64,000 nt of DNA from Candidatus Gottesmanbacteria bacterium (GCA_030679255.1 JAUXTO010000022.1:128915-192914); one strand, 5' to 3'. Shown: positions 5,204 through 22,881, counted from the first letter of the stretch. The notes: a model not told the origin generated them from the letters alone. Program-made: numbers and translations.

Positions 5204-5932
5204 TTAAAGGAATCGAAGTACTTTCGCCTTTGCCTTGAGCTCATTAAACCACGGCTGGAGCTTATCGCCGATATGGGCGTCAAGGATAGCTTGTTTGGCT
5301 TCACTTCGCAGCGCCGCCTCTTCGGTAGCGACCAATGTCGCCCGATTCGTCGCGATAAAATTATTGACGTCTGCGTCGGTGATCGTTAACCCTTTTCCTA
5401 ATATCTTTTGGACCGTAAGCTGTAACGTGATTTGCCGGTCAAATTCTGATTTGGTCAGTCCCTGGATCTTGAGAATCTCCTCAAGTTTCATCCCCCCGCC
5501 CAACCCTTTGACGATTTCCTCTTCCCGGGCACTTACTTCCGCGGGCGACATGACGATGCCCTGCTTTCGGGCTTCGCTTTCGATCAATTTCTCACTGATC
5601 ATACCCTCAAGTGTTTGCTTACCATACCGGTCCGCCATCACACCATTGAGTTCCCAACTCCACACCGGCCTGCCGTCAACGACTGCCGCCACGAGCATGC
5701 TTTTGTTCGCCAAAAGTAATGCAGATAATGCCAGGAGTCCAAGAACGAGATACAGAACTTTTGTATTAAACTTTGGCTTGGCGGTCATCGGGGGTGTTTC
5801 ATTATTGAAACTCGAAGTCATCGCCATATCCGCTACTGCTTCTTTTTTCACTGAAGTTTTCTTCTTTGCAATTTTTCGTGTTGCCATACCAGGTAGTAGA
5901 ACTTCGATAATTTTCTTGCTCTTAAGTGTCAA
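5204..5932 (-). CDS. SurA N-terminal domain-like periplasmic chaperone, membrane-anchored
   Basis: A TM anchor (VLYLVLGLLALSALLLA) is followed by a SurA_N/PpiD-like helical region. The start codon is uncertain. Confidence 0.5.
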   Translation of the reverse strand: MTLKSKKIIEVLLPGMATRKIAKKKTSVKKEAVADMAMTSSFNNETPPMTAKPKFNTKVLYLVLGLLALSALLLANKSMLVAAVVDGRPVWSWELNGVMADRYGKQTLEGMISEKLIESEARKQGIVMSPAEVSAREEEIVKGLGGGMKLEEILKIQGLTKSEFDRQITLQLTVQKILGKGLTITDADVNNFIATNRATLVATEEAALRSEAKQAILDAHIGDKLQPWFNELKAKAKVLRFL

Positions 5933-6097
5933 GAAAATCTTTTGTCCTAATCCTCCATAAATGAACTATCAATATTATCAGTAACCAAGCATGGTCTCTC
6001 TCACCTTATAGCAAGATCGAAGTTTCACTACCTGGCTTTCTGTCAATCGCCAAAGCATACCACAGTCATGTGGGAAGCACAACCCACGATATACAAC

Positions 6098-12793: not shown

Positions 12794-14224
12794 CTATTGT
12801 ACCTCAATTCGTCGATTTGTTACTTTGTTACTTTGTAAAACTACAATGCTCATCCCCACGAGCACCGTCAATAACAATTGACCCTGCTGGAGGGTGAGGG
12901 GATAGTGGTCGACGAGACCGAGGAGAAGGATACAAAAAAATGGGACAAAGTATATAGTATTTAGGTTAAACAATAATTCCTTTCTATTTTCCTTAATACG
13001 AAATACTAATCCCTTAATACTCTGCCAAATAAATATGACAATAAAAACAAAACCAACGACGCCGGTTTCTGCCAATACAAGAAGATAGATGTTGTGGACC
13101 GGCTGGAGAAAATAGATTGTCCGGGAGGGGAGTGCCTCCGGCAACCGCACGAGAAAATTTCCCAACCCCACACCAAAGAGGGGAGAGGCAGTCCATAATT
13201 TTATAGCTGCATTGTTCAGCTGCTGCCGGACCACAACGCTTTCCTCTTTTGGTGAAAAAGACCAAACCGCTAACACTAGAAAAAGAATAAAGGGGATAGT
13301 ATATAGTATATAGGCAAAAACTCTATTCATTTTCTTCCTAAATACTAAATACAATATACTAATCCCTATCCCAGCCCCTCCCACCACAATCGCGCTCCGG
13401 CTAAATGTCAGGAGAAGCGCAATTGCACCCAACACCAACGCCGTGGCGTGCAAGTATTTTATTCTTTGATTCATTGGACTCATCAGACTCATTGGACGCA
13501 TAAGACTCATACATAATAGCGGCAATACTGCCGCCAAAAACCCGCCCAGCACATTCGGGTGGGGGAATGTGGCATAAGGCCGGAGTCCAAAAAGTCGAAA
13601 GTCAAAAGTCGAAAGTCGAAAGTCGAAATCGTAACGCGCTATCCCCGGTGTGTCCACACCAAATGTCCTCTCACCGAGCCACCAGAGCGGCCCGCCGACG
13701 GAATGCTGGAGAAAAAATTGTGTAATGGCCAATATTGAAGAATAGAGAACGCCGACCGCTAGGGGAGTAATGACAAACGAAAGTTTTGGTTTCGTTCTTA
13801 CGATGTACAGTCCCAGTAAAATATACTCACAAACTTTTATCCATTTATACACGGCAACAGGAATATTTGTTGCAATAAAAATATTAATACCTACGAACGC
13901 CAGCACTGCCGCCAACCATACATGTTTTGTTTGAAGCTTTGGAATTTTGAACCTTGGAATTTGTTTGGGATTTGTCAGCCATAGGCTGATCAGCCTTTGG
14001 CTGAGGATTTGGGATTTGGTATTTCCTTGCGCCCCTTGAAAAAAGACTGACGCCAACCAGCATCCTGTAGTCAAAAACACAAGTAAGTCTGTCAAAAACA
14101 AGGTGGGCGCCAGGTAGTCCACCCTCCTCCCCAACACTCCCGCCCACTCCGGCCAGAAGTGCAGCCCAAGTTGGGTGGGGAGTAATGCTAAAAGAAGCCA
14201 AAAAAACTTTTGGTGCCACTTCAT
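12794..14224 (-). CDS. O-antigen ligase/polymerase-like membrane protein (Wzy_C)
   Basis: Polytopic membrane protein with a Wzy_C-like motif TFSRSAIVVGGAGIG. It contains internal tandem DNA repeats. Confidence 0.6.
   Translation of the reverse strand: MKWHQKFFWLLLALLPTQLGLHFWPEWAGVLGRRVDYLAPTLFLTDLLVFLTTGCWLASVFFQGAQGNTKSQILSQRLISLWLTNPKQIPRFKIPKLQTKHVWLAAVLAFVGINIFIATNIPVAVYKWIKVCEYILLGLYIVRTKPKLSFVITPLAVGVLYSSILAITQFFLQHSVGGPLWWLGERTFGVDTPGIARYDFDFRLSTFDFRLFGLRPYATFPHPNVLGGFLAAVLPLLCMSLMRPMSLMSPMNQRIKYLHATALVLGAIALLLTFSRSAIVVGGAGIGISILYLVFRKKMNRVFAYILYTIPFILFLVLAVWSFSPKEESVVVRQQLNNAAIKLWTASPLFGVGLGNFLVRLPEALPSRTIYFLQPVHNIYLLVLAETGVVGFVFIVIFIWQSIKGLVFRIKENRKELLFNLNTIYFVPFFCILLLGLVDHYPLTLQQGQLLLTVLVGMSIVVLQSNKVTNRRIEVQ
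13592..13626. repeat. heptanucleotide tandem repeat (AAGTCGA x5, one imperfect) inside the Wzy_C-like CDS
   Basis: Read directly from the sequence. It encodes FDFDFRLSTFDFRLF. The unit length is not a multiple of 3. Confidence 0.8.
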
Positions 14225-15006
14225 GAAGGAACGATGGGAAGATGGTGCTTAAAATTATTCTCCTTCATCCGTTTCACCACCTTGCCAACGGTGGTATGAT
14301 CATATCCCTTTGCAACCACTTCATCAATCGACTTTTTCTCGTCCACAATCATTCTTAAAATTGCATCCGCCTCTTTATAGCTAAACCCAAACTCTCCTTC
14401 ATCCGTCTGGCCTTCCCAAAGGCCTGCCGTCGGGGCTTTCGTAATGACCTGATCCGGTAATCGTAACACTCGAGCCAGCTCATACACATCTGTTTTATAT
14501 AAGTTCCGTATGGGTTCGATGTCACTTGCCTCATCGCCAAAGCGCGTAAAGTAACCAAGGAGATGTTCCGTCTTATTTTCTGTACCGACGACTAAGGCAT
14601 CGTGTTTCTTCGCGTGGTCGTAAAGAAGTATCATCCGCACCCGCGCCATCACATTGCCTCGGCGAATGTTGTCCATCAAAGGATCCAGGGCAACAATCGG
14701 ATCAACCAGCGGCTGGATATTAATAATAGATACATTATTCTTTGGAATTTCCAACGTTTGTATGACCAGCTTTGCATCCGCGACCCCCTGATCGTTGAGG
14801 ATTCCATATGGCAGGAGTAGGGGATAAACATTATATTTTCCCAACGCCCGGACTGCTAACGCACAACTCACACTCGAATCAATCCCACCGGAAAACGCAA
14901 TCACCGCCCGCAAAAAACCGGCTGTCTGAAATGATGATCGGAGAAACTGAATCAGATTTTTTGTGACACGATGAGGATTAATGGTTTTCATACTTTGATA
15001 ATTCAC
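14221..15006 (-). CDS. nadE: NH3-dependent NAD+ synthetase
   Basis: PP-loop motif AFSGGIDSSVS; about 260 aa, NadE-like throughout. Confidence 0.9.
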   Translation of the reverse strand: MNYQSMKTINPHRVTKNLIQFLRSSFQTAGFLRAVIAFSGGIDSSVSCALAVRALGKYNVYPLLLPYGILNDQGVADAKLVIQTLEIPKNNVSIINIQPLVDPIVALDPLMDNIRRGNVMARVRMILLYDHAKKHDALVVGTENKTEHLLGYFTRFGDEASDIEPIRNLYKTDVYELARVLRLPDQVITKAPTAGLWEGQTDEGEFGFSYKEADAILRMIVDEKKSIDEVVAKGYDHTTVGKVVKRMKENNFKHHLPIVPS

Positions 15007-15511
15007 TCAAATTATCAGGCAAGTGATCAATCCCACCAAACTCTTTGATAGCAATTGATTTTATTCGTCTTTTTATCTCTGGCTTTATGAAGGTTATCGT
15101 CATTTCTTTTTCTCCGCCGATACTCTCACAATCGTCTTCAATTAAAATATCCGGTGCAATCTTTTCGGCTATTTGGGCGTAACTTTCTCCTTTTTTGCGA
15201 TGATAAATTTTCCCTTTTGGGAAAGCGTATCTATCCAAAATTTCTAAATCAGCTTTCACACCTTCTTTGCCGGCTACTTCATCACCTCTCGCTTTTATAT
15301 TCTCGGTTAACGCACTGAGATAAAAAATCTCTGCGCCTTGTTCAGCCCACCTTTTTAACTTCCCTACAGCATGACCGATAGGAACATACGCATGAAAATC
15401 ACGAACGGATTCTCCCTGATCCTTTACTTGTCTGATAATTTGTTCACGGGTTTTGCCAATAGCACTTTTGTGCATCAGCAGTGTGCCTTGGAGAAACAGT
15501 AAAATCTTCAT
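14978..15511 (-). CDS. HAD-fold-like hypothetical protein with degenerate motif I
   Basis: FLQGTLL sits where HAD motif I (DxDGT) is expected, and ILIEDD resembles motif IV. It overlaps the nadE start by 29 nt. Confidence 0.3.
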   Translation of the reverse strand: MKILLFLQGTLLMHKSAIGKTREQIIRQVKDQGESVRDFHAYVPIGHAVGKLKRWAEQGAEIFYLSALTENIKARGDEVAGKEGVKADLEILDRYAFPKGKIYHRKKGESYAQIAEKIAPDILIEDDCESIGGEKEMTITFIKPEIKRRIKSIAIKEFGGIDHLPDNLSELSKYENH

Positions 15512-15731
15512 ATACAAAGCTCTATGAAAATGGAAAATGCAATTATCGAAGACTCACTCTCTGCAATAGAGAGCTTTTTAGTCGAAGCTCGGAGTCATAC
15601 GGCAGATTTTTTTTCACAAACTCTATCGCCCTTTTCTCGGCTTTATCTACTAATTTTACCAATCTATGATATTCCTTGCCTTCCTCTCGTCTGGATTTCA
15701 TATCTATATGTAGAGTAGCACGTAGTATGCG

Positions 15732-16373
15732 TTAGTCAATACGGCAATGGTACGTAGCAGTGAGAATGCGTTTTAATTCTGGCAACGCAAATGCTCCGAT
15801 TATCTGCGAGTTTGCTTGCATCGCTCTCATAATCTGTGCCACTTGATCTTTAGAAAACTGATGACTACATTTGGATACGATACGAATAATTGTATTTGTT
15901 GTTTCAAATGAGCTGCTCTCGCAAAGAGCATGAACAAGTGACTGTAAAGATTTTTTGTAGTATACAGTCTTCGGCTGGTAGTGTAGACCAATATGCGCAA
16001 CGGTAACGGCCAGCTCAAACAAATTATCCGTTGGCTCATTTCTGTATTGCAGCGCCTGATACTTATTGATAAATCCGTATGGATTTATGGTCTCAAGTTT
16101 GATTGGAATTATTTTCTTTTTCAAACACACGGCGTAACCTGTTTCCTGGTCAGTATACGAAGAATTCTTAAAACGTTCCGAAACAAGAGGGATAAAGAAG
16201 TCTGCGTTTCGTATGGCGTGAAGTATTTCTTTTTCCCAAATTTCAGACCCAAGAATGTCATCATGGGCGATAAATGTATCGTAACCGCAGTAACGAATCA
16301 ACAACTGTTTTAATCTTCCACCGATTTGCTTTTCCTCCGAGGAATAGCTGATAAACGCACGAGTTCGATCCAT
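15732..16373 (-). CDS. TIR domain protein (predicted NAD+ glycohydrolase) with unknown C-terminal domain
   Basis: Bacterial TIR signature RAFISYSSEEK..., ADFFIPLVSERF, and a conserved Glu in SSYTDQETGYAV. The C-terminal 100 aa or so has no recognisable motif. Confidence 0.8.
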   Translation of the reverse strand: MDRTRAFISYSSEEKQIGGRLKQLLIRYCGYDTFIAHDDILGSEIWEKEILHAIRNADFFIPLVSERFKNSSYTDQETGYAVCLKKKIIPIKLETINPYGFINKYQALQYRNEPTDNLFELAVTVAHIGLHYQPKTVYYKKSLQSLVHALCESSSFETTNTIIRIVSKCSHQFSKDQVAQIMRAMQANSQIIGAFALPELKRILTATYHCRID

Positions 16374-16482
16374 ATATAATTTCTTAGTCTTTCCTAAAAC
16401 TTAACAATCTTACCAGCCCAGACTCGCGTATTGGACATTTAGACCTGACCCACTTACTCCTCATTGATAGACTTCATAATGA

Positions 16483-17022
16483 TTACTTCAAAAGCTTCTT
16501 TACAGTCGTGGTTGTCGCCCCGTAGCACATTTTTAGATAGCTCAGGCCCTCCCGATGATCCTTATCGCTAAACGATTCAACACAATCCTCCAACACCACA
16601 ACCGTATAATTCTTCGCAAATGCATCGGCGCTGGTATGTCTCACACAAATATGGGTATGCTGCCCCACGAGAATCACCGTTTTGATTTCGTGTTGACGAA
16701 GCAACAAATCAAGACCGGTCTCATAAAATGCACTATAGGTGCGCTTACCAAGCACGATGTCTCCCTGTTTTGGATCGAGTTCTTTTATCACTTGAGCACC
16801 GGGACTACCGGCAAGCGCATGGGTGCCCCACACCTTTTCCTCCGGATCGCCTGGTAAATGTGCATCATTGGCATATACCACAAGCCAGTCCTTTGCCCTT
16901 GCAAACTCAAGAAGCTTGGCAATGTTGGGAATAATTCGTTTGGCCCGGTCATTTTTCAGCGCTCCATAAACGAAATCTTCAAGCATGTCTATGACAACCA
17001 CTGCATATTTATTTCTTACCAT
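16483..17022 (-). CDS. pncA: nicotinamidase (isochorismatase family)
   Basis: VVIDMLEDF (catalytic Asp), YANDAHLPGD...GTHA (metal ligands), and the Cys in GQHTHICV. Confidence 0.75.
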   Translation of the reverse strand: MVRNKYAVVVIDMLEDFVYGALKNDRAKRIIPNIAKLLEFARAKDWLVVYANDAHLPGDPEEKVWGTHALAGSPGAQVIKELDPKQGDIVLGKRTYSAFYETGLDLLLRQHEIKTVILVGQHTHICVRHTSADAFAKNYTVVVLEDCVESFSDKDHREGLSYLKMCYGATTTTVKKLLK

Positions 17023-17028
17023 AGTTTT

Positions 17029-18093
17029 TCAGCTAAAATTATTTACTTTCATGCGGCTGTTTACCTGATAACTTCTCCCAGCCTTGGCAATCCTTTTTCC
17101 ATTAACTTTGACAATGTCCGCCGTAAAATCGTTGTTCCCATGCACAAGTGCCGACCCCACGCCATATCCATCCACCGGCGTCTTTTCTTTCTCAAACATC
17201 CGTACCTTCTCCTCGGTAAATCCTCCGGACACGAGTATTTTAACATGGCCGTATCCATTGTCGTTGAGTGCTTTCCGAACGAGCATAACCAACGTCGGAT
17301 TAACCCCAAACATATTTTTTGTATTTTTACTCAATGATTTATCAACCATATTGCCCGCAGTATCCAGTCGTACGCCCCACAACTTTTTCCCAAGGGCTTT
17401 GGCCACCGCCAGCGAGGAACCCACGCAATCGTTATCAAAATCAACAAGGGCAACAATGTTCACACCACGAATATGTTTAGCAAACAATTCTGCTGCCTTC
17501 ACCGTACTACCATCATTGACTGCAATGAGTGCATGGGGGATAGTGCCGACGGGAATTCCGTTCCACCGTGATGCGTGGGCAACCGTGCACACGCCCGCCG
17601 CACCCCCGATGTGCGCCGCGTACCCATCACCTTCCTGATTATGGAAATCATCAAACCGGTCGGCAAAGAAAAACACCGGTTTGCCGTTCGCGGCTTCTAT
17701 AACGCAGCGCGTGTTGGTCGCCACCATCGTGCGCCGTGCGAGGATGCCCAAGTATAATGATTCAAGATGAGCAAAATACAAATATGAACCGGTAACGTGC
17801 ATTATCGGCTCTCGATTACCAATGGTATCGCCATCGGAAAGCGCGGATACAGTAAGTGTTTGGTTTTTTGAAACCCATCGGGCTCCCCGCCACATCCCCG
17901 CTCCTACACGAAGAAGCTCTCCTACCTCATCCACACCACATAAAACACTGTTCTCGTTTCTCTGAAATATCTGCATTGTCACAACGGTCGTATCGCCTTC
18001 CCGCTCGAGGATATATTTGGTCCGGTTGAAGTACGTGGCACTATAGAATCCGCGCCGAATCCGCTCAATAGTTAGCTTATCCCAATACGTCAT
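17029..18093 (-). CDS. pncB: nicotinate phosphoribosyltransferase (short archaeal-type)
   Basis: YFNRTKYILE N-terminal motif and NAPRTase-family core at 354 aa. Only a 6-nt gap separates it from pncA. Confidence 0.7.
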   Translation of the reverse strand: MTYWDKLTIERIRRGFYSATYFNRTKYILEREGDTTVVTMQIFQRNENSVLCGVDEVGELLRVGAGMWRGARWVSKNQTLTVSALSDGDTIGNREPIMHVTGSYLYFAHLESLYLGILARRTMVATNTRCVIEAANGKPVFFFADRFDDFHNQEGDGYAAHIGGAAGVCTVAHASRWNGIPVGTIPHALIAVNDGSTVKAAELFAKHIRGVNIVALVDFDNDCVGSSLAVAKALGKKLWGVRLDTAGNMVDKSLSKNTKNMFGVNPTLVMLVRKALNDNGYGHVKILVSGGFTEEKVRMFEKEKTPVDGYGVGSALVHGNNDFTADIVKVNGKRIAKAGRSYQVNSRMKVNNFS

Positions 18094-18449
18094 ACTTTTA
18101 TGGCAAATCCCGCATAGTCATCAGGGTTTTTCATCGAGAAAAAATGACATAACAATTGATCTATTTCTTGATTAGAAAGTTCGGAAGGTATCGCGATAAT
18201 TCCCGGCTTTCCCTTTTTGACGAGCTTCTTGAAGTCCTGATAATTGATGGTAACGACAAATCTGTCTGTTTCGATTGCTTTTTGATAGATTTCCCGATCT
18301 TCTGCTTGTGGAGACAAGCCACAATCGGCAACAGCATGGGCAAGGTTAGCCTTCTTGCTCAAACGTGGAAAGGATTGAGGTTTGGCAAAAGCTGAATCAA
18401 GCAATAATCTAAATTTTCGTTTAATTTTTGAAGTTTTATTTTTAGACAA
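18090..18449 (-). CDS. DUF5615-like (PIN-like) protein, putative toxin partner of DUF433
   Basis: A small protein immediately downstream of the DUF433 gene and overlapping it, with a 4-nt overlap onto the pncB start. Confidence 0.45.
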   Translation of the reverse strand: MSKNKTSKIKRKFRLLLDSAFAKPQSFPRLSKKANLAHAVADCGLSPQAEDREIYQKAIETDRFVVTINYQDFKKLVKKGKPGIIAIPSELSNQEIDQLLCHFFSMKNPDDYAGFAIKV

Positions 18450-18645
18450 GTTGCTGTTGATAGTAGGTAAATATCTGAAGTAAATCCTGTCTGGTTATAT
18501 CCAAATACGGATAGTCTTTTTTAAAGTCTTTTATTCCATACCCTTGAACATAAAGAGCCACAACACGAGCTACAGGAATTCTTGTTCCTGAAATTACGGG
18601 TTGTCCTCCTAATACATTGGGATTTGATTCAATAATCTTTGGCAT
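18442..18645 (-). CDS. DUF433 domain protein
   Basis: VLGGQPVISGTRIPVARV is the DUF433 signature. Confidence 0.7.
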   Translation of the reverse strand: MPKIIESNPNVLGGQPVISGTRIPVARVVALYVQGYGIKDFKKDYPYLDITRQDLLQIFTYYQQQLV

Positions 18646-18679
18646 ACTGCGCGTAGTATAAAAAGCTTTTATTTATATG

Positions 18680-19243
18680 TCAACTTCTATACAGCCCATG
18701 CTTCTTTATATATGTGGCAACAGCAGGAGGGACAAATGCGTCGATGGACAGTCCCTGCCGCGCGCGTTCCCGTATCTTGGTCGAAGATATATTGGAAATC
18801 ATGAGGGATGTGTGCTCAAGAAGGGTCATATTTTTGTACAACGGGGCATTGGCATACCCGCCCCGGGGGAATATAAGAAACGGAATCTGATTGAGAAGTT
18901 CTTCCCAGTGGCTCCACTTAGTGGTAAATCCCGGCAGCCAGTCCGCGCCCATGATAAAGGTATAGGAGTGTTTGGGTGGAAGATGGGGGAGCAGGTTAAT
19001 GGTATTGCCGTCAAGTTTGCGATCTATCTCCAGAGTAGATACAACCGTCCCGGACATCTTCAAATATTTCGTCATTGCGAGCCGGTCGGCGACTGGAGCC
19101 ACATGGGGTTTTGGGGGGTGCTGCCCGTAGTTGGGGAGAAACCAAATTTCTTCAATGTCTGTAAAGTCCAGTACCTGCCGGGCAATCATGAGGTGCCCGA
19201 GATGGGGGGGATTAAACACGCCGCCGAAGATACCAATTCTCAT
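18680..19243 (-). CDS. nadD: nicotinate-nucleotide adenylyltransferase
   Basis: GIFGGVFNPPHLGHL (the HxGH nucleotidyltransferase motif) in a protein of about 190 aa. The start is trimmed to the Met of MRIGIFGG. Confidence 0.85.
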   Translation of the reverse strand: MRIGIFGGVFNPPHLGHLMIARQVLDFTDIEEIWFLPNYGQHPPKPHVAPVADRLAMTKYLKMSGTVVSTLEIDRKLDGNTINLLPHLPPKHSYTFIMGADWLPGFTTKWSHWEELLNQIPFLIFPRGGYANAPLYKNMTLLEHTSLMISNISSTKIRERARQGLSIDAFVPPAVATYIKKHGLYRS

Positions 19244-19254
19244 ACATACCAATA

Positions 19255-19400
19255 CACAATATCCAATCCACAATTTCCAACAAGGTGGAGAAAGCTTTTT
19301 ATAAAATGCCTTTTTTCCATGTTGGACATTGGATATTGGACATTGGATATTAACTGTGATCTCTCCGCGTTGGTCATTGGGATTTGGTCATTGGACATTT
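19255..19400. repeat. intergenic long imperfect palindrome with tandem TTGGACATTGGATATT / TTGGTCATTGG repeats
   Basis: tccaatatccaatccacaatttccaaca is mirrored by tgttggacattggatattggacattggatatt. It lies between nadD and jag. Confidence 0.6.
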
Positions 19401-21093: not shown

Positions 21094-21474
21094 TTAGGGT
21101 TTAGCGATTTCTGATTGAGATTTTTTGATAAGTCCCCGGATAAGTTTGCTCACAAAAGTAGATTGTTCTGCGATTCTCCTGAATGCGTCCAAAGAGATAT
21201 ATCCCACATCGCGGCTCACCAACAACTGATTCTGTAATTCCGTAAGTGATCCAAGAGATATTGAATAAAATTGCAGCTTCTCTTTCCATGAATTTCTGCT
21301 AAATCCTTCTGCAATATTGGATGTTATAGAAACAGCACATCGGCGTATCTGGCTTGTTAGACCAAATAATTCCTCTCTTGGAAATCCTTTTGTTATACGA
21401 TAAATATCCAATACCAACACATGTCCCTCTTTCCATGCAACAAGATCAGTAAACGACAATATTTTTTCATTCAT
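21094..21474 (-). CDS. four-helix-bundle protein (TIGR02436; 23S rRNA IVS-protein family)
   Basis: 126 aa with the family motifs KEGHVLVLDIYRITKGFP and ITSNIAEGFSR. It is inserted between rnpA and yidD. Confidence 0.7.
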   Translation of the reverse strand: MNEKILSFTDLVAWKEGHVLVLDIYRITKGFPREELFGLTSQIRRCAVSITSNIAEGFSRNSWKEKLQFYSISLGSLTELQNQLLVSRDVGYISLDAFRRIAEQSTFVSKLIRGLIKKSQSEIAKP

Positions 21475-22244: not shown

Positions 22245-22592
22245 TTATTTTTGTTGAGCTTTGATCATCAAATCAATCTCACGCTTCAAAACTGGCAGGT
22301 CGTCTTGTATCGTTTTCCAAATCACTTCTAGATCGATACCAAAGTACTCATGGACTACCTTGTCGCGCGCACCGACGACTTGTTTCCATGGGACAGTGGG
22401 ATACGCAAGACGCAGCGGCTCTGGTATGTGTCGCGCGGCTTCACCGATCACTTCGATGTTTCGAACCACCGCATCTATCGTCCGGGCGTCCCGGGAAAAC
22501 GCCTCAAAAGACATAGACGACACAAACTCGTTTATCTTTTCTATCGCCTCACGGATATCGGACAAGTAGAGAAGCGTGTTGTGTTCAGACAT
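22245..22592 (-). CDS. hepT: HepT-like toxin (DUF86/HEPN)
   Basis: HEPN-type Rx4HxY motif region in RDKVVHEYFGID. It overlaps the upstream MNT gene by 8 nt. Confidence 0.8.
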   Translation of the reverse strand: MSEHNTLLYLSDIREAIEKINEFVSSMSFEAFSRDARTIDAVVRNIEVIGEAARHIPEPLRLAYPTVPWKQVVGARDKVVHEYFGIDLEVIWKTIQDDLPVLKREIDLMIKAQQK

Positions 22593-22881
22593 AAACCGTC
22601 TCCCGTAAGACCACGTCTTTTATAAATGGTTTGAGTGCATTTACCGTAACGACATCCACATTCCGCTTCAAGAGTGTTTTTAAACGATCCTCAAGCTCAA
22701 TGAGCTTAAATAGCCCAATCGGTTGTGTGAGTTCTACGAGGATATCCACGTCGCTTGTTCGCTTGGTGTCGCCGCGCGCCACAGAGCCGAACACGCCCAA
22801 TCGTCTCACTGAGTATGATTCTCTAAAATGGGGAATGCTCTGCTTGAGTATCTTCTTTGCGGTTGCCAAATCTATCATCAT
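22585..22881 (-). CDS. mntA: MNT nucleotidyltransferase antitoxin
   Basis: GVFGSVARGDTKRTSDVDILV, the minimal NTase GSx9-13DxD motif. Confidence 0.8.
   Translation of the reverse strand: MMIDLATAKKILKQSIPHFRESYSVRRLGVFGSVARGDTKRTSDVDILVELTQPIGLFKLIELEDRLKTLLKRNVDVVTVNALKPFIKDVVLRETVYV

Follow-up and report, generated by a model that had tools for sequence, protein, structure and literature searches.

A window of 64,000 nucleotides (the whole stretch of DNA that was analysed) from a metagenome-assembled genome of Candidatus Gottesmanbacteria, a member of the candidate phyla radiation (CPR; Microgenomates), contains a gene for a TIR-domain protein within an operon of NAD salvage genes. This TIR gene, the small gene that follows it and their relationship to the operon are the subject of the present analysis. 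Eight co-directional open reading frames (ORFs) were found on the minus strand at the coordinates reported in a preliminary description of the same DNA, and the profile matches agreed with the identities given there (Table 1). The gene set of the Preiss-Handler route was likewise confirmed: NadD and NadE scored above the cut-offs of their equivalog models, PncB fell marginally short of its own (376 vs 378 bits), and a PncA-like protein was recognised by PF00857. The likely true starts of the HAD-like gene and nadE, taken from gene calls, are at 15511 and 14991, and that of nadD is the ATG at 19243, which opens the canonical MRIGIFGG sequence; the longest nadD ORF extends to 19273. The genes named around the TIR gene were correct, but the 214-nt 'gap' downstream of it contains a conserved gene for 52 amino acids that had been missed in the first reading.

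Table 1. Features of the NAD salvage operon and its inserts, in window coordinates.
Feature	Position	Strand	Evidence and remarks
nadD, nicotinate-nucleotide adenylyltransferase, core operon gene	18680-19243	-	TIGR00482, 130 bits vs cut-off 112; 187 aa
Best sigma-70-like promoter match, TTGACA-17-TATACT	18655-18683	-	11/12; consensus match alone
DUF433 protein, first gene of putative toxin-antitoxin (TA) pair	18442-18645	-	PF04255, E 2.4e-16; low-GC insert
DUF5615 protein, second gene of putative TA pair	18090-18449	-	PF18480, E 3e-10
pncB, nicotinate phosphoribosyltransferase, core operon gene	17029-18093	-	NF005529, E 1.7e-112, 376 bits vs cut-off 378
pncA-like isochorismatase-family cysteine hydrolase, probable nicotinamidase	16483-17022	-	PF00857, E 5.6e-47
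Relic of ancestral nadE start, mini-ORF MKSINEE*	16454-16477	-	match to L094
Relic of second pncB 3' end with conserved TIR leader	16374-16434	-	~85% alignment to L002
Two-domain TIR protein, 213 aa	15732-16373	-	
TIR domain, residues 1-115	16029-16373	-	
Glu77 codon	16143-16145	-	
Helical C-terminal domain, residues 118-213	15735-16022	-	
Small basic protein, conserved TIR partner	15543-15701	-	52 aa, pI 10.2, helical motif LVKLVDKAEKRAIEFVKKN
HAD-like-fold protein, CPR-wide family of unknown function	14978-15511	-	no Pfam family
nadE, ammonia-dependent NAD+ synthetase, core operon gene	14221-14991	-	NF010587, 297 bits vs cut-off 255

The TIR protein scored 61.5 bits with TIR_2 (PF13676; cut-off 28) and 25.6 bits with PF01582 (cut-off 21.3), and its AlphaFold2 model (pLDDT 92.8) displayed the flavodoxin-like TIR fold. 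Glu77, located in a QETG motif, was invariant across 37 homologues and aligned with the catalytic Glu position of Cat1 (..CWDELEQA) and C. elegans TIR-1 (..VHKELKCA). The assignment of a TIR domain with a catalytic Glu, made already in the preliminary description, is solid, and the domain is predicted to be an NAD+ glycohydrolase with Glu77 as the catalytic residue.

The same small gene was placed by independent gene callers after every close TIR homologue. An ORF of 46-61 codons, carrying the motif Y..LVKLV.KAEK.A.EFV.KN, begins 20-35 nt past the TIR stop in every CPR locus with a TIR protein at least 39% identical, and about 20 distinct CPR loci, with TIR identities of 39-100% and at least six genomic contexts (often restriction-modification loci), showed the pairing, which indicates that the evolutionary unit is the TIR gene together with the small gene. 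No small ORF was found next to the non-CPR TIR homologues (26-38% identity). In comparison with locus L002, the small ORF had accumulated 14 synonymous and 10 non-synonymous codon changes and is thus under purifying selection. The small protein matched no Pfam family and had no recognisable antitoxin or DNA-binding domain; its profile-profile comparison with the TIR protein's C-terminal domain gave nothing, so that it is not a split-off piece of this domain.

The wider TIR family was retrieved by a profile search among 1.84 billion proteins, resulting in 1120 cluster representatives from bacteria and archaea at E <= 1e-30. Most of the members are 200-250 residues long and are covered over both domains. 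A subset of 330-450 residues (P0248, P0258, P0260, P0266, P0271, P0293, P0311) carries an N-terminal extension of 110-180 residues before the TIR domain; no Pfam domain was matched by the extensions, among them some of 110-140 residues, which could be a further domain or mis-called starts. The neighbourhoods were surveyed with 149 ORFs flanking 43 non-CPR members and with 12 CPR loci. Subunits of type I restriction-modification (R-M) systems (HsdS 8, HsdR N-terminus 7, MTase_I 9) and MNT/HepT pairs were the commonest neighbours in the non-CPR set, and R-M neighbours were also present at the CPR loci. No NAD salvage family was found among the 25 most frequent neighbour families of either set. 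Abortive-infection genes that stand alone, e.g. PrrC, typically have such a position within R-M loci.

Solved TIR NADase effectors activated by a ligand or by oligomerisation (SARM1, SPARTA TIR-APAZ, TIR-SAVED, Cat1, SpbK) form oligomeric or filament assemblies. The present protein resembles them in having a putative sensor fused C-terminally to the TIR domain and in the expected output, NAD+ depletion. In contrast to these effectors, its C-terminal domain is unrelated to the APAZ, SAVED, CARF or ARM domains, and no Argonaute, cyclase or CRISPR partner accompanies it. Protection of E. coli from phages has been shown for short TIR proteins, either single or paired with one further gene, and it needs the TIR active site (PMC11350192). 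By comparison of the descriptions only, the family resembles these systems, TIR-I to TIR-IX, in its architecture, but none of them is described with a DARNA-like domain (see below) or a 50-residue partner.

Likeness of the C-terminal domain to DARNA

Residues 118-213 of the TIR protein were modelled by AlphaFold2 as a bundle of five or six helices. This domain had been left unassigned before, with its structure to be predicted; the fold could be modelled, but as to the assignment no Pfam family was matched and the similarity detected was weak for the window protein by itself and confined to the distal part of two defence-protein models. In the PADLOC collection, the window TIR protein matched the models PDC-S34 (E 6e-5) and PD-T7-3 (E 1.6e-3). 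When 32 diverse C-terminal domains from bacteria and archaea were scanned singly against the defence-protein models, PDC-S34 was matched by 19 of them (best E 3.6e-8) and PD-T7-3 by 13 (best E 1.8e-7), always in the same C-terminal stretch of the models.

PD-T7-3 has been characterised as DARNA, a HEPN RNase forming a dodecamer, which is switched on by single-stranded DNA (ssDNA) bound by the phage single-stranded DNA-binding protein (SSB); its distal C-terminal region contacts ssDNA via F368, D372, N402, Q403, Y405, W406 and N408 (bioRxiv 10.64898/2026.02.22.705581). A profile search of the PDB with the C-terminal domain returned 'Dandelion' (9wxf; 460 residues, 12 chains), the name under which DARNA is deposited there, over residues 343-410 with E 1e-3, and no description of that entry was found in literature searches on its name. 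The Dandelion segment FERAD...NNQCY reproduces the DARNA contact pattern at a numbering offset of +5, which was deduced from the pattern. The best-conserved C-terminal positions of the TIR family are S153, F156, N160, N188 and Q190. With the same deduced offset, F156 corresponds to F368 and Q190 to Q403, and N160 replaces D372.

The likeness to DARNA thus resides in the distal C-terminal helical region, where it is detectable at the profile level and where, at the deduced offset, the conserved aromatic and Gln/Asn positions would coincide with positions of ssDNA base contact, and in the general build, predicted for the TIR protein, of a compact abortive-infection protein composed of an effector and a sensor. 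The effectors are different, a HEPN RNase in DARNA and a TIR domain here: no HEPN match, including the Rx4H-type N-terminal RNase of DARNA, was obtained with the TIR protein, whose N-terminal domain is the TIR domain. The match spans the distal 55-65 residues alone, and the domain is considerably shorter (about 95 residues vs about 300 in DARNA). The CPR branch of the TIR family has, in addition, the small partner gene. Dodecamer formation and activation by ssDNA are features known for DARNA. Taken at this level, there is moderate evidence that the C-terminal domain and DARNA share a nucleic-acid-sensing module. A word-indexed homologue search with the profile of the C-terminal domain gave close CPR relatives alone and no fusion partners.

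The protein ends of the family were also inspected. The E. coli SSB ends in ...DDDIPF, and D-[DE]-[ILV]-P-F is the signature of the SSB C-terminal tip. Six of 88 TIR family members, belonging to different phyla, end in this signature (start of the TIR match: L039 10001, L041 10001, L043 931, L059 6052, L065 10001, L066 10001), which suggests that the tailed proteins dock onto SSB-interacting sites. These tails fit the ssDNA/SSB theme of DARNA; no SSB-like tail is present in the window TIR protein.

Operon context in relatives and the junction scars

The window proteins were compared by tblastn with 80 genomic loci encoding TIR homologues. NAD genes were found in just one of these, L002, with a TIR protein 86% identical, and no NAD gene lay within 10 kb of the TIR gene in about 70 more distant loci. 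A TIR gene flanked by NAD genes is limited to a narrow clade of Gottesmanbacteria with TIR proteins at least 79% identical. Even there the arrangement varies: the order is pncB-TIR-small-nadE in P0007 (87%), and TIR-small-nadE, with pncB not alongside, in P0004 (79%). In P0008 (69%), the cassette resides in an unrelated context. Elsewhere in the CPR, it adjoins a type IIG R-M and PD-(D/E)XK island (L174), NUDIX and Pif1 genes (L175), or YceG and TrmB genes (L176). The NUDIX gene of L175, a Levybacteria genome, ends 7 nt before the TIR start (5437-5994); NUDIX enzymes can hydrolyse ADP-ribose.

The converse survey was conducted with 80 pncB-centred metagenome loci. The synteny of L094, rnpA-yidD-yidC-jag-nadD-DUF433-DUF5615-pncB-pncA-nadE-Wzy-flippase, is that of the window, but nadE begins 5 nt after pncA and there is no TIR gene, small ORF or HAD-like gene. 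In L095, L099 and L102, nadE directly follows pncB, again with no TIR gene. A degraded cassette was detected at another junction, between nadD and pncB, in L096 (507-917) and L097 (9105-9515); the TIR protein is reduced there to residues 1-35 and 166-213 with a frame break, the catalytic core being deleted, and the small ORF is intact (73% identity). The TIR gene is frameshifted in L082. With its absence from L094, L095, L099 and L102, the TIR gene does not behave as a conserved member of the operon.

The junctions of the window carry relics of two operon types. The 61 nt upstream of the TIR start align at about 85% with L002, where they cover the last 12 codons of the L002 pncB (...PNTRLRLVRL*) and its TIR leader, and the window thus carries the relic of a second pncB 3' end in front of TIR. 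Right after the pncA stop, the sequence TATGAAGTCTATC follows, from which a stop is reached after seven codons, and the 13 nt at 16466-16478 equal the pncA-nadE junction of L094 at 12 of 13 positions. Together, both relics indicate that the locus is a mosaic of pncB-pncA-nadE and pncB-TIR-small-nadE operons. Judging from these scars, the adjacency of pncA and TIR is a recent product of recombination and so far unique to this genome.

At third codon positions, the GC content of the nad genes was 0.47-0.57, compared with 0.40 in the TIR gene and the small ORF, 0.33 in the HAD-like gene, 0.25 in DUF433 and 0.34 in DUF5615. Only short, likely chance matches came from a search for repeats on the flanks of the insert, with no terminal repeats or target duplications beyond the gene relics. 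The window contains no tRNA gene and hence no tRNA integration site. In tblastn searches against plasmids and phages, two near-full-length plasmid relatives and no phage relatives were obtained; with so few relatives, nothing points to either a plasmid or a phage as the vehicle.

The preliminary description had proposed that the TIR protein is wired directly into the housekeeping pathway, possibly as a cycle of NAD+ hydrolysis and resynthesis. The sister operons with no TIR gene and the scarred pncA-TIR junction speak against this proposal, and the suggested survey of the TIR-pncA-pncB-nadD-nadE neighbourhood gave no support to it either, as the distant homologues are never next to NAD genes. 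Two observations had been named as signs of a chance insertion. The first, a neighbourhood that is not conserved, was largely found, since only very close relatives share it. The second, transcription of the TIR gene from its own promoter, was not: the gap between pncA and TIR contained no promoter-like site of at least 9/12 with the sigma-70-type consensus, which is not decisive for CPR promoters. On balance, the location in the operon is rather a historical accident of one narrow Gottesmanbacteria clade than a conserved component of NAD salvage.

With respect to transcription, no terminator-like hairpin was found on the coding strand of any gap by a consensus scan. In L002 (6340-6355) and L082 (8740-8755), the stop codon of the small ORF and the start codon of nadE share the overlap TAATG, by which nadE appears to be translationally coupled to the second gene of the cassette. 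Both observations make read-through into nadE likely, and the cassette is probably co-transcribed with nadE. Such read-through is expected for any cassette inserted ahead of an essential gene, and it does not count as evidence that the two are functionally coupled.

Proposed mechanism and alternative explanations

The explanation that is favoured, if not strongly, is that the unit in question is a mobile two-gene cassette of TIR and small gene, acting as a nucleic-acid-triggered NADase module of abortive infection, and not an eight-gene operon. The C-terminal domain would bind an infection-associated nucleic-acid cue, by analogy with ssDNA in the case of DARNA, and several such domains on one strand would bring the TIR domains together. 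The assembly of TIR domains would form composite active sites and deplete NAD+, leading to abortive infection or growth arrest. In CPR hosts, the small basic helical protein of 46-56 residues would restrain or assist the TIR system; most likely, it acts as an antitoxin-like partner or as a co-sensor. On this reading, the recombination of a pncB-pncA-nadE operon with a pncB-TIR-small-nadE operon gave the pncA-TIR adjacency. An abortive-infection effector paired with a recovery route had been among the earlier suggestions. The effector part of it fits the evidence, but the paired recovery route has no support from the comparison of genomes.

Several points weigh against this explanation. That the protein is an NADase, what triggers it and what the small protein does are each predicted from sequence. 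The essential DARNA residue W406 has no counterpart in the C-terminal domain, and the window protein, taken by itself, resembles DARNA weakly (E 4e-4 to 1.4e-5) and over about 55-65 residues of a 300-residue DARNA domain. In the small protein, which is basic, neither an antitoxin fold nor a DNA-binding fold can be recognised. The CPR cassette is often situated amid housekeeping genes and not in obvious defence islands. Within the clade, it occupies two different junctions of the same operon (L002 vs L096), which could hint at some affinity for the nad operon. A selective benefit of this location is possible as well, since the NAD salvage pathway buffers an unrelated NADase toxin, NatT (PMC11535050).

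The cassette may alternatively be a pure addiction module of the type II-like kind, composed of a TIR toxin and a small antitoxin, with no phage sensing and with a C-terminal domain that is only regulatory or serves oligomerisation. The two genes do form an adjacent co-directional pair with conserved pairing and a patchy, mobile distribution, as in type II toxin-antitoxin systems; their composition is low in GC and they sit among other TA pairs. Moreover, the small ORF stands alone only where the catalytic core of the TIR gene has been deleted, and no CPR locus has an intact TIR gene without it, which mildly favours an antitoxin-like role. An addiction module is nevertheless considered unlikely. 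The non-CPR members are widespread (within the 1120 cluster representatives) with no small partner and are embedded in type I R-M loci like stand-alone defence genes, the small protein has no recognisable antitoxin domain, and the C-terminal domain matches defence-protein models. The RES-Xre systems, including NatR-NatT, are comparable as two-gene modules with an NAD+-depleting toxin, and in the case of NatR-NatT the toxin is physiologically counteracted by NAD salvage. However, their toxin has the RES fold in place of TIR, an upstream gene for an Xre-type HTH protein provides the antitoxin, and the module lies outside the salvage operon.

Functional coupling to the operon would mean that the NADase is retained in the sole NAD salvage operon because co-expression with PncA, PncB, NadD and NadE buffers a leaky NADase or permits recovery once it has been activated, as a reversible dormancy switch or a cycle of hydrolysis and resynthesis. 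The gene order of the window would let the nicotinamide released by the TIR protein feed PncA, and nadE lies downstream of the cassette with no terminator-like site in the gaps and, in L002 and L082, with the TAATG overlap. The occupation of two junctions of the same operon and the precedent of NatT, which is neutralised by salvage (PMC11535050), agree with the coupling too. Nevertheless, the association does not extend beyond one narrow clade, in keeping with one insertion event, and is absent from about 70 other loci of the family; the sister operons L094, L095, L099 and L102 lack the cassette; pncA adjoins TIR only in this genome, at a scarred junction; and the TIR gene is pseudogenised in L082 and L096. 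The coupling is accordingly regarded as quite improbable. The same low credence is given to its most far-reaching form, in which the salvage operon acquired an NADase immune effector, and toxin and remedy, placed on one transcript, afford a reversible dormancy after infection. If this were true, a collapse of NAD+ would be followed by automatic resynthesis from the released nicotinamide in a CPR host that probably depends on salvage for its NAD.

A signalling TIR of the ThsB type, in which a messenger of the cyclic ADPR type would serve an effector encoded at another place and nicotinamide would be a mere by-product, is very unlikely. Like Thoeris ThsB, the protein is a bacterial TIR protein of about 200 residues standing alone, and weak matches to ThsB models were obtained (PADLOC ThsB, E 1.9e-4; NCBIfam Thoeris III ThcB4, E 8.5e-6), but every score was below the cut-off, e.g. 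17.5 bits vs 21.2 for the Pfam ThsB_TIR model PF08937 and 24.8 bits vs 220 for ThcB4. The C-terminal domain is different from that of ThsB, no ThsA-type effector (SIR2, SLOG or Macro) was present among the called neighbours in the window or in the relatives examined, and none was among the 25 most frequent neighbour families. A housekeeping role in CPR metabolism, as an N-glycosidase of nucleotides or NAD, is hardly credible: the fold matches include DNPH1, MilB, BcmB and nucleoside deoxyribosyltransferases and the CPR cassette is often amid housekeeping genes, but bona fide TIR NADases give the best matches in both sequence and fold, the distribution is patchy with pseudogenes in close relatives, the composition looks foreign and the wider family is associated with R-M loci.

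The mobile two-gene cassette removes an attractive but misleading reading, that of a TIR NADase built into NAD metabolism, and replaces it with a testable one: a large uncharacterised family, with about 1100 cluster representatives, would join a TIR NADase to the sensor region of DARNA. If confirmed, one sensor drives an RNase of the HEPN type in one protein and a TIR NADase in the other, both of them suicide effectors. In the CPR bacteria, the TIR protein has gained a small partner protein of its own.

Other operon genes and further inserts

The PncA-like protein carries the catalytic triad D12/K93/C126 and the D53-x-H55...H68 motif. Its score with the nicotinamidase equivalog model was 46 bits against a cut-off of 174, and its closest PDB relative was Ta0454 (3eef) with E 3e-42, compared with about 1e-17 for solved nicotinamidases. 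A pncA homologue directly downstream of pncB was found in at least 11 distant loci; pncA is present in L094 and absent from L002, L082 and L095. By its genomic context, the product is likely a nicotinamidase. No Rfam family was matched in the window, and there was no NAD riboswitch upstream of the operon.

The HAD-like gene, the stop of which is overlapped by the nadE start by 14 nt, had been described as having a degenerate catalytic motif. However, FLQGT or FLHGT is kept throughout the 1678 homologues of its family (60-84% identity; Microgenomates and Parcubacteria), and the replacement of the HAD nucleophile Asp is thus a family trait and not the mark of a degenerate copy. About 38 residues are invariant in the family, including H16, R24, R39, D79-E80, H106-R107 and E127-D128-x-C130. 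The Foldseek matches to HAD phosphatases were weak (E about 1e-3, TM 0.36-0.53). Homologues elsewhere adjoin a dCMP deaminase gene, or NUDIX and HIT genes, by which the protein may be an enzyme of nucleotide metabolism. In a single instance (L092, 5568-5999), a NUDIX gene precedes the HAD-like homologue, similarly to the NUDIX gene before TIR in L175. In the locus itself, the HAD-like gene was found at another place in L084 and L127 and as a 41-residue fragment in L082; it is an independent gene and not part of the TIR module.

The DUF433/DUF5615 pair is absent from L002 and L095 and is an independent low-GC insertion. The pair and the HAD-like gene are indeed interleaved with the salvage genes, as had been noted, but they do not form one system with the TIR gene. 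The best promoter match of the operon lies immediately upstream of DUF433, within the closing codons of nadD and the region of its stop, and the inserted pair may thus bring its own promoter, which could also drive pncB.

The same interval is occupied in L082 and L084 by DUF6922-AbiEii, MNT-HEPN, DUF433/DUF5615 and a Y1 transposase, with HicAB nearby, and the window contains an MNT (NTP_transf_2)/HepT pair just beyond rnpA (22245-22881, minus strand). These varied cassettes indicate that the operon junctions are a hotspot for selfish cassettes, and the locus clearly illustrates the use of an essential operon as a landing site by TA and defence cassettes, with the recombination scars still legible. 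A gene resembling bAvd, the 23S rRNA intervening-sequence protein, is located between yidD and rnpA (21094-21474, minus strand); together with MNT/HepT, it represents the further small selfish modules of the origin-proximal rnpA-yidC-jag region.

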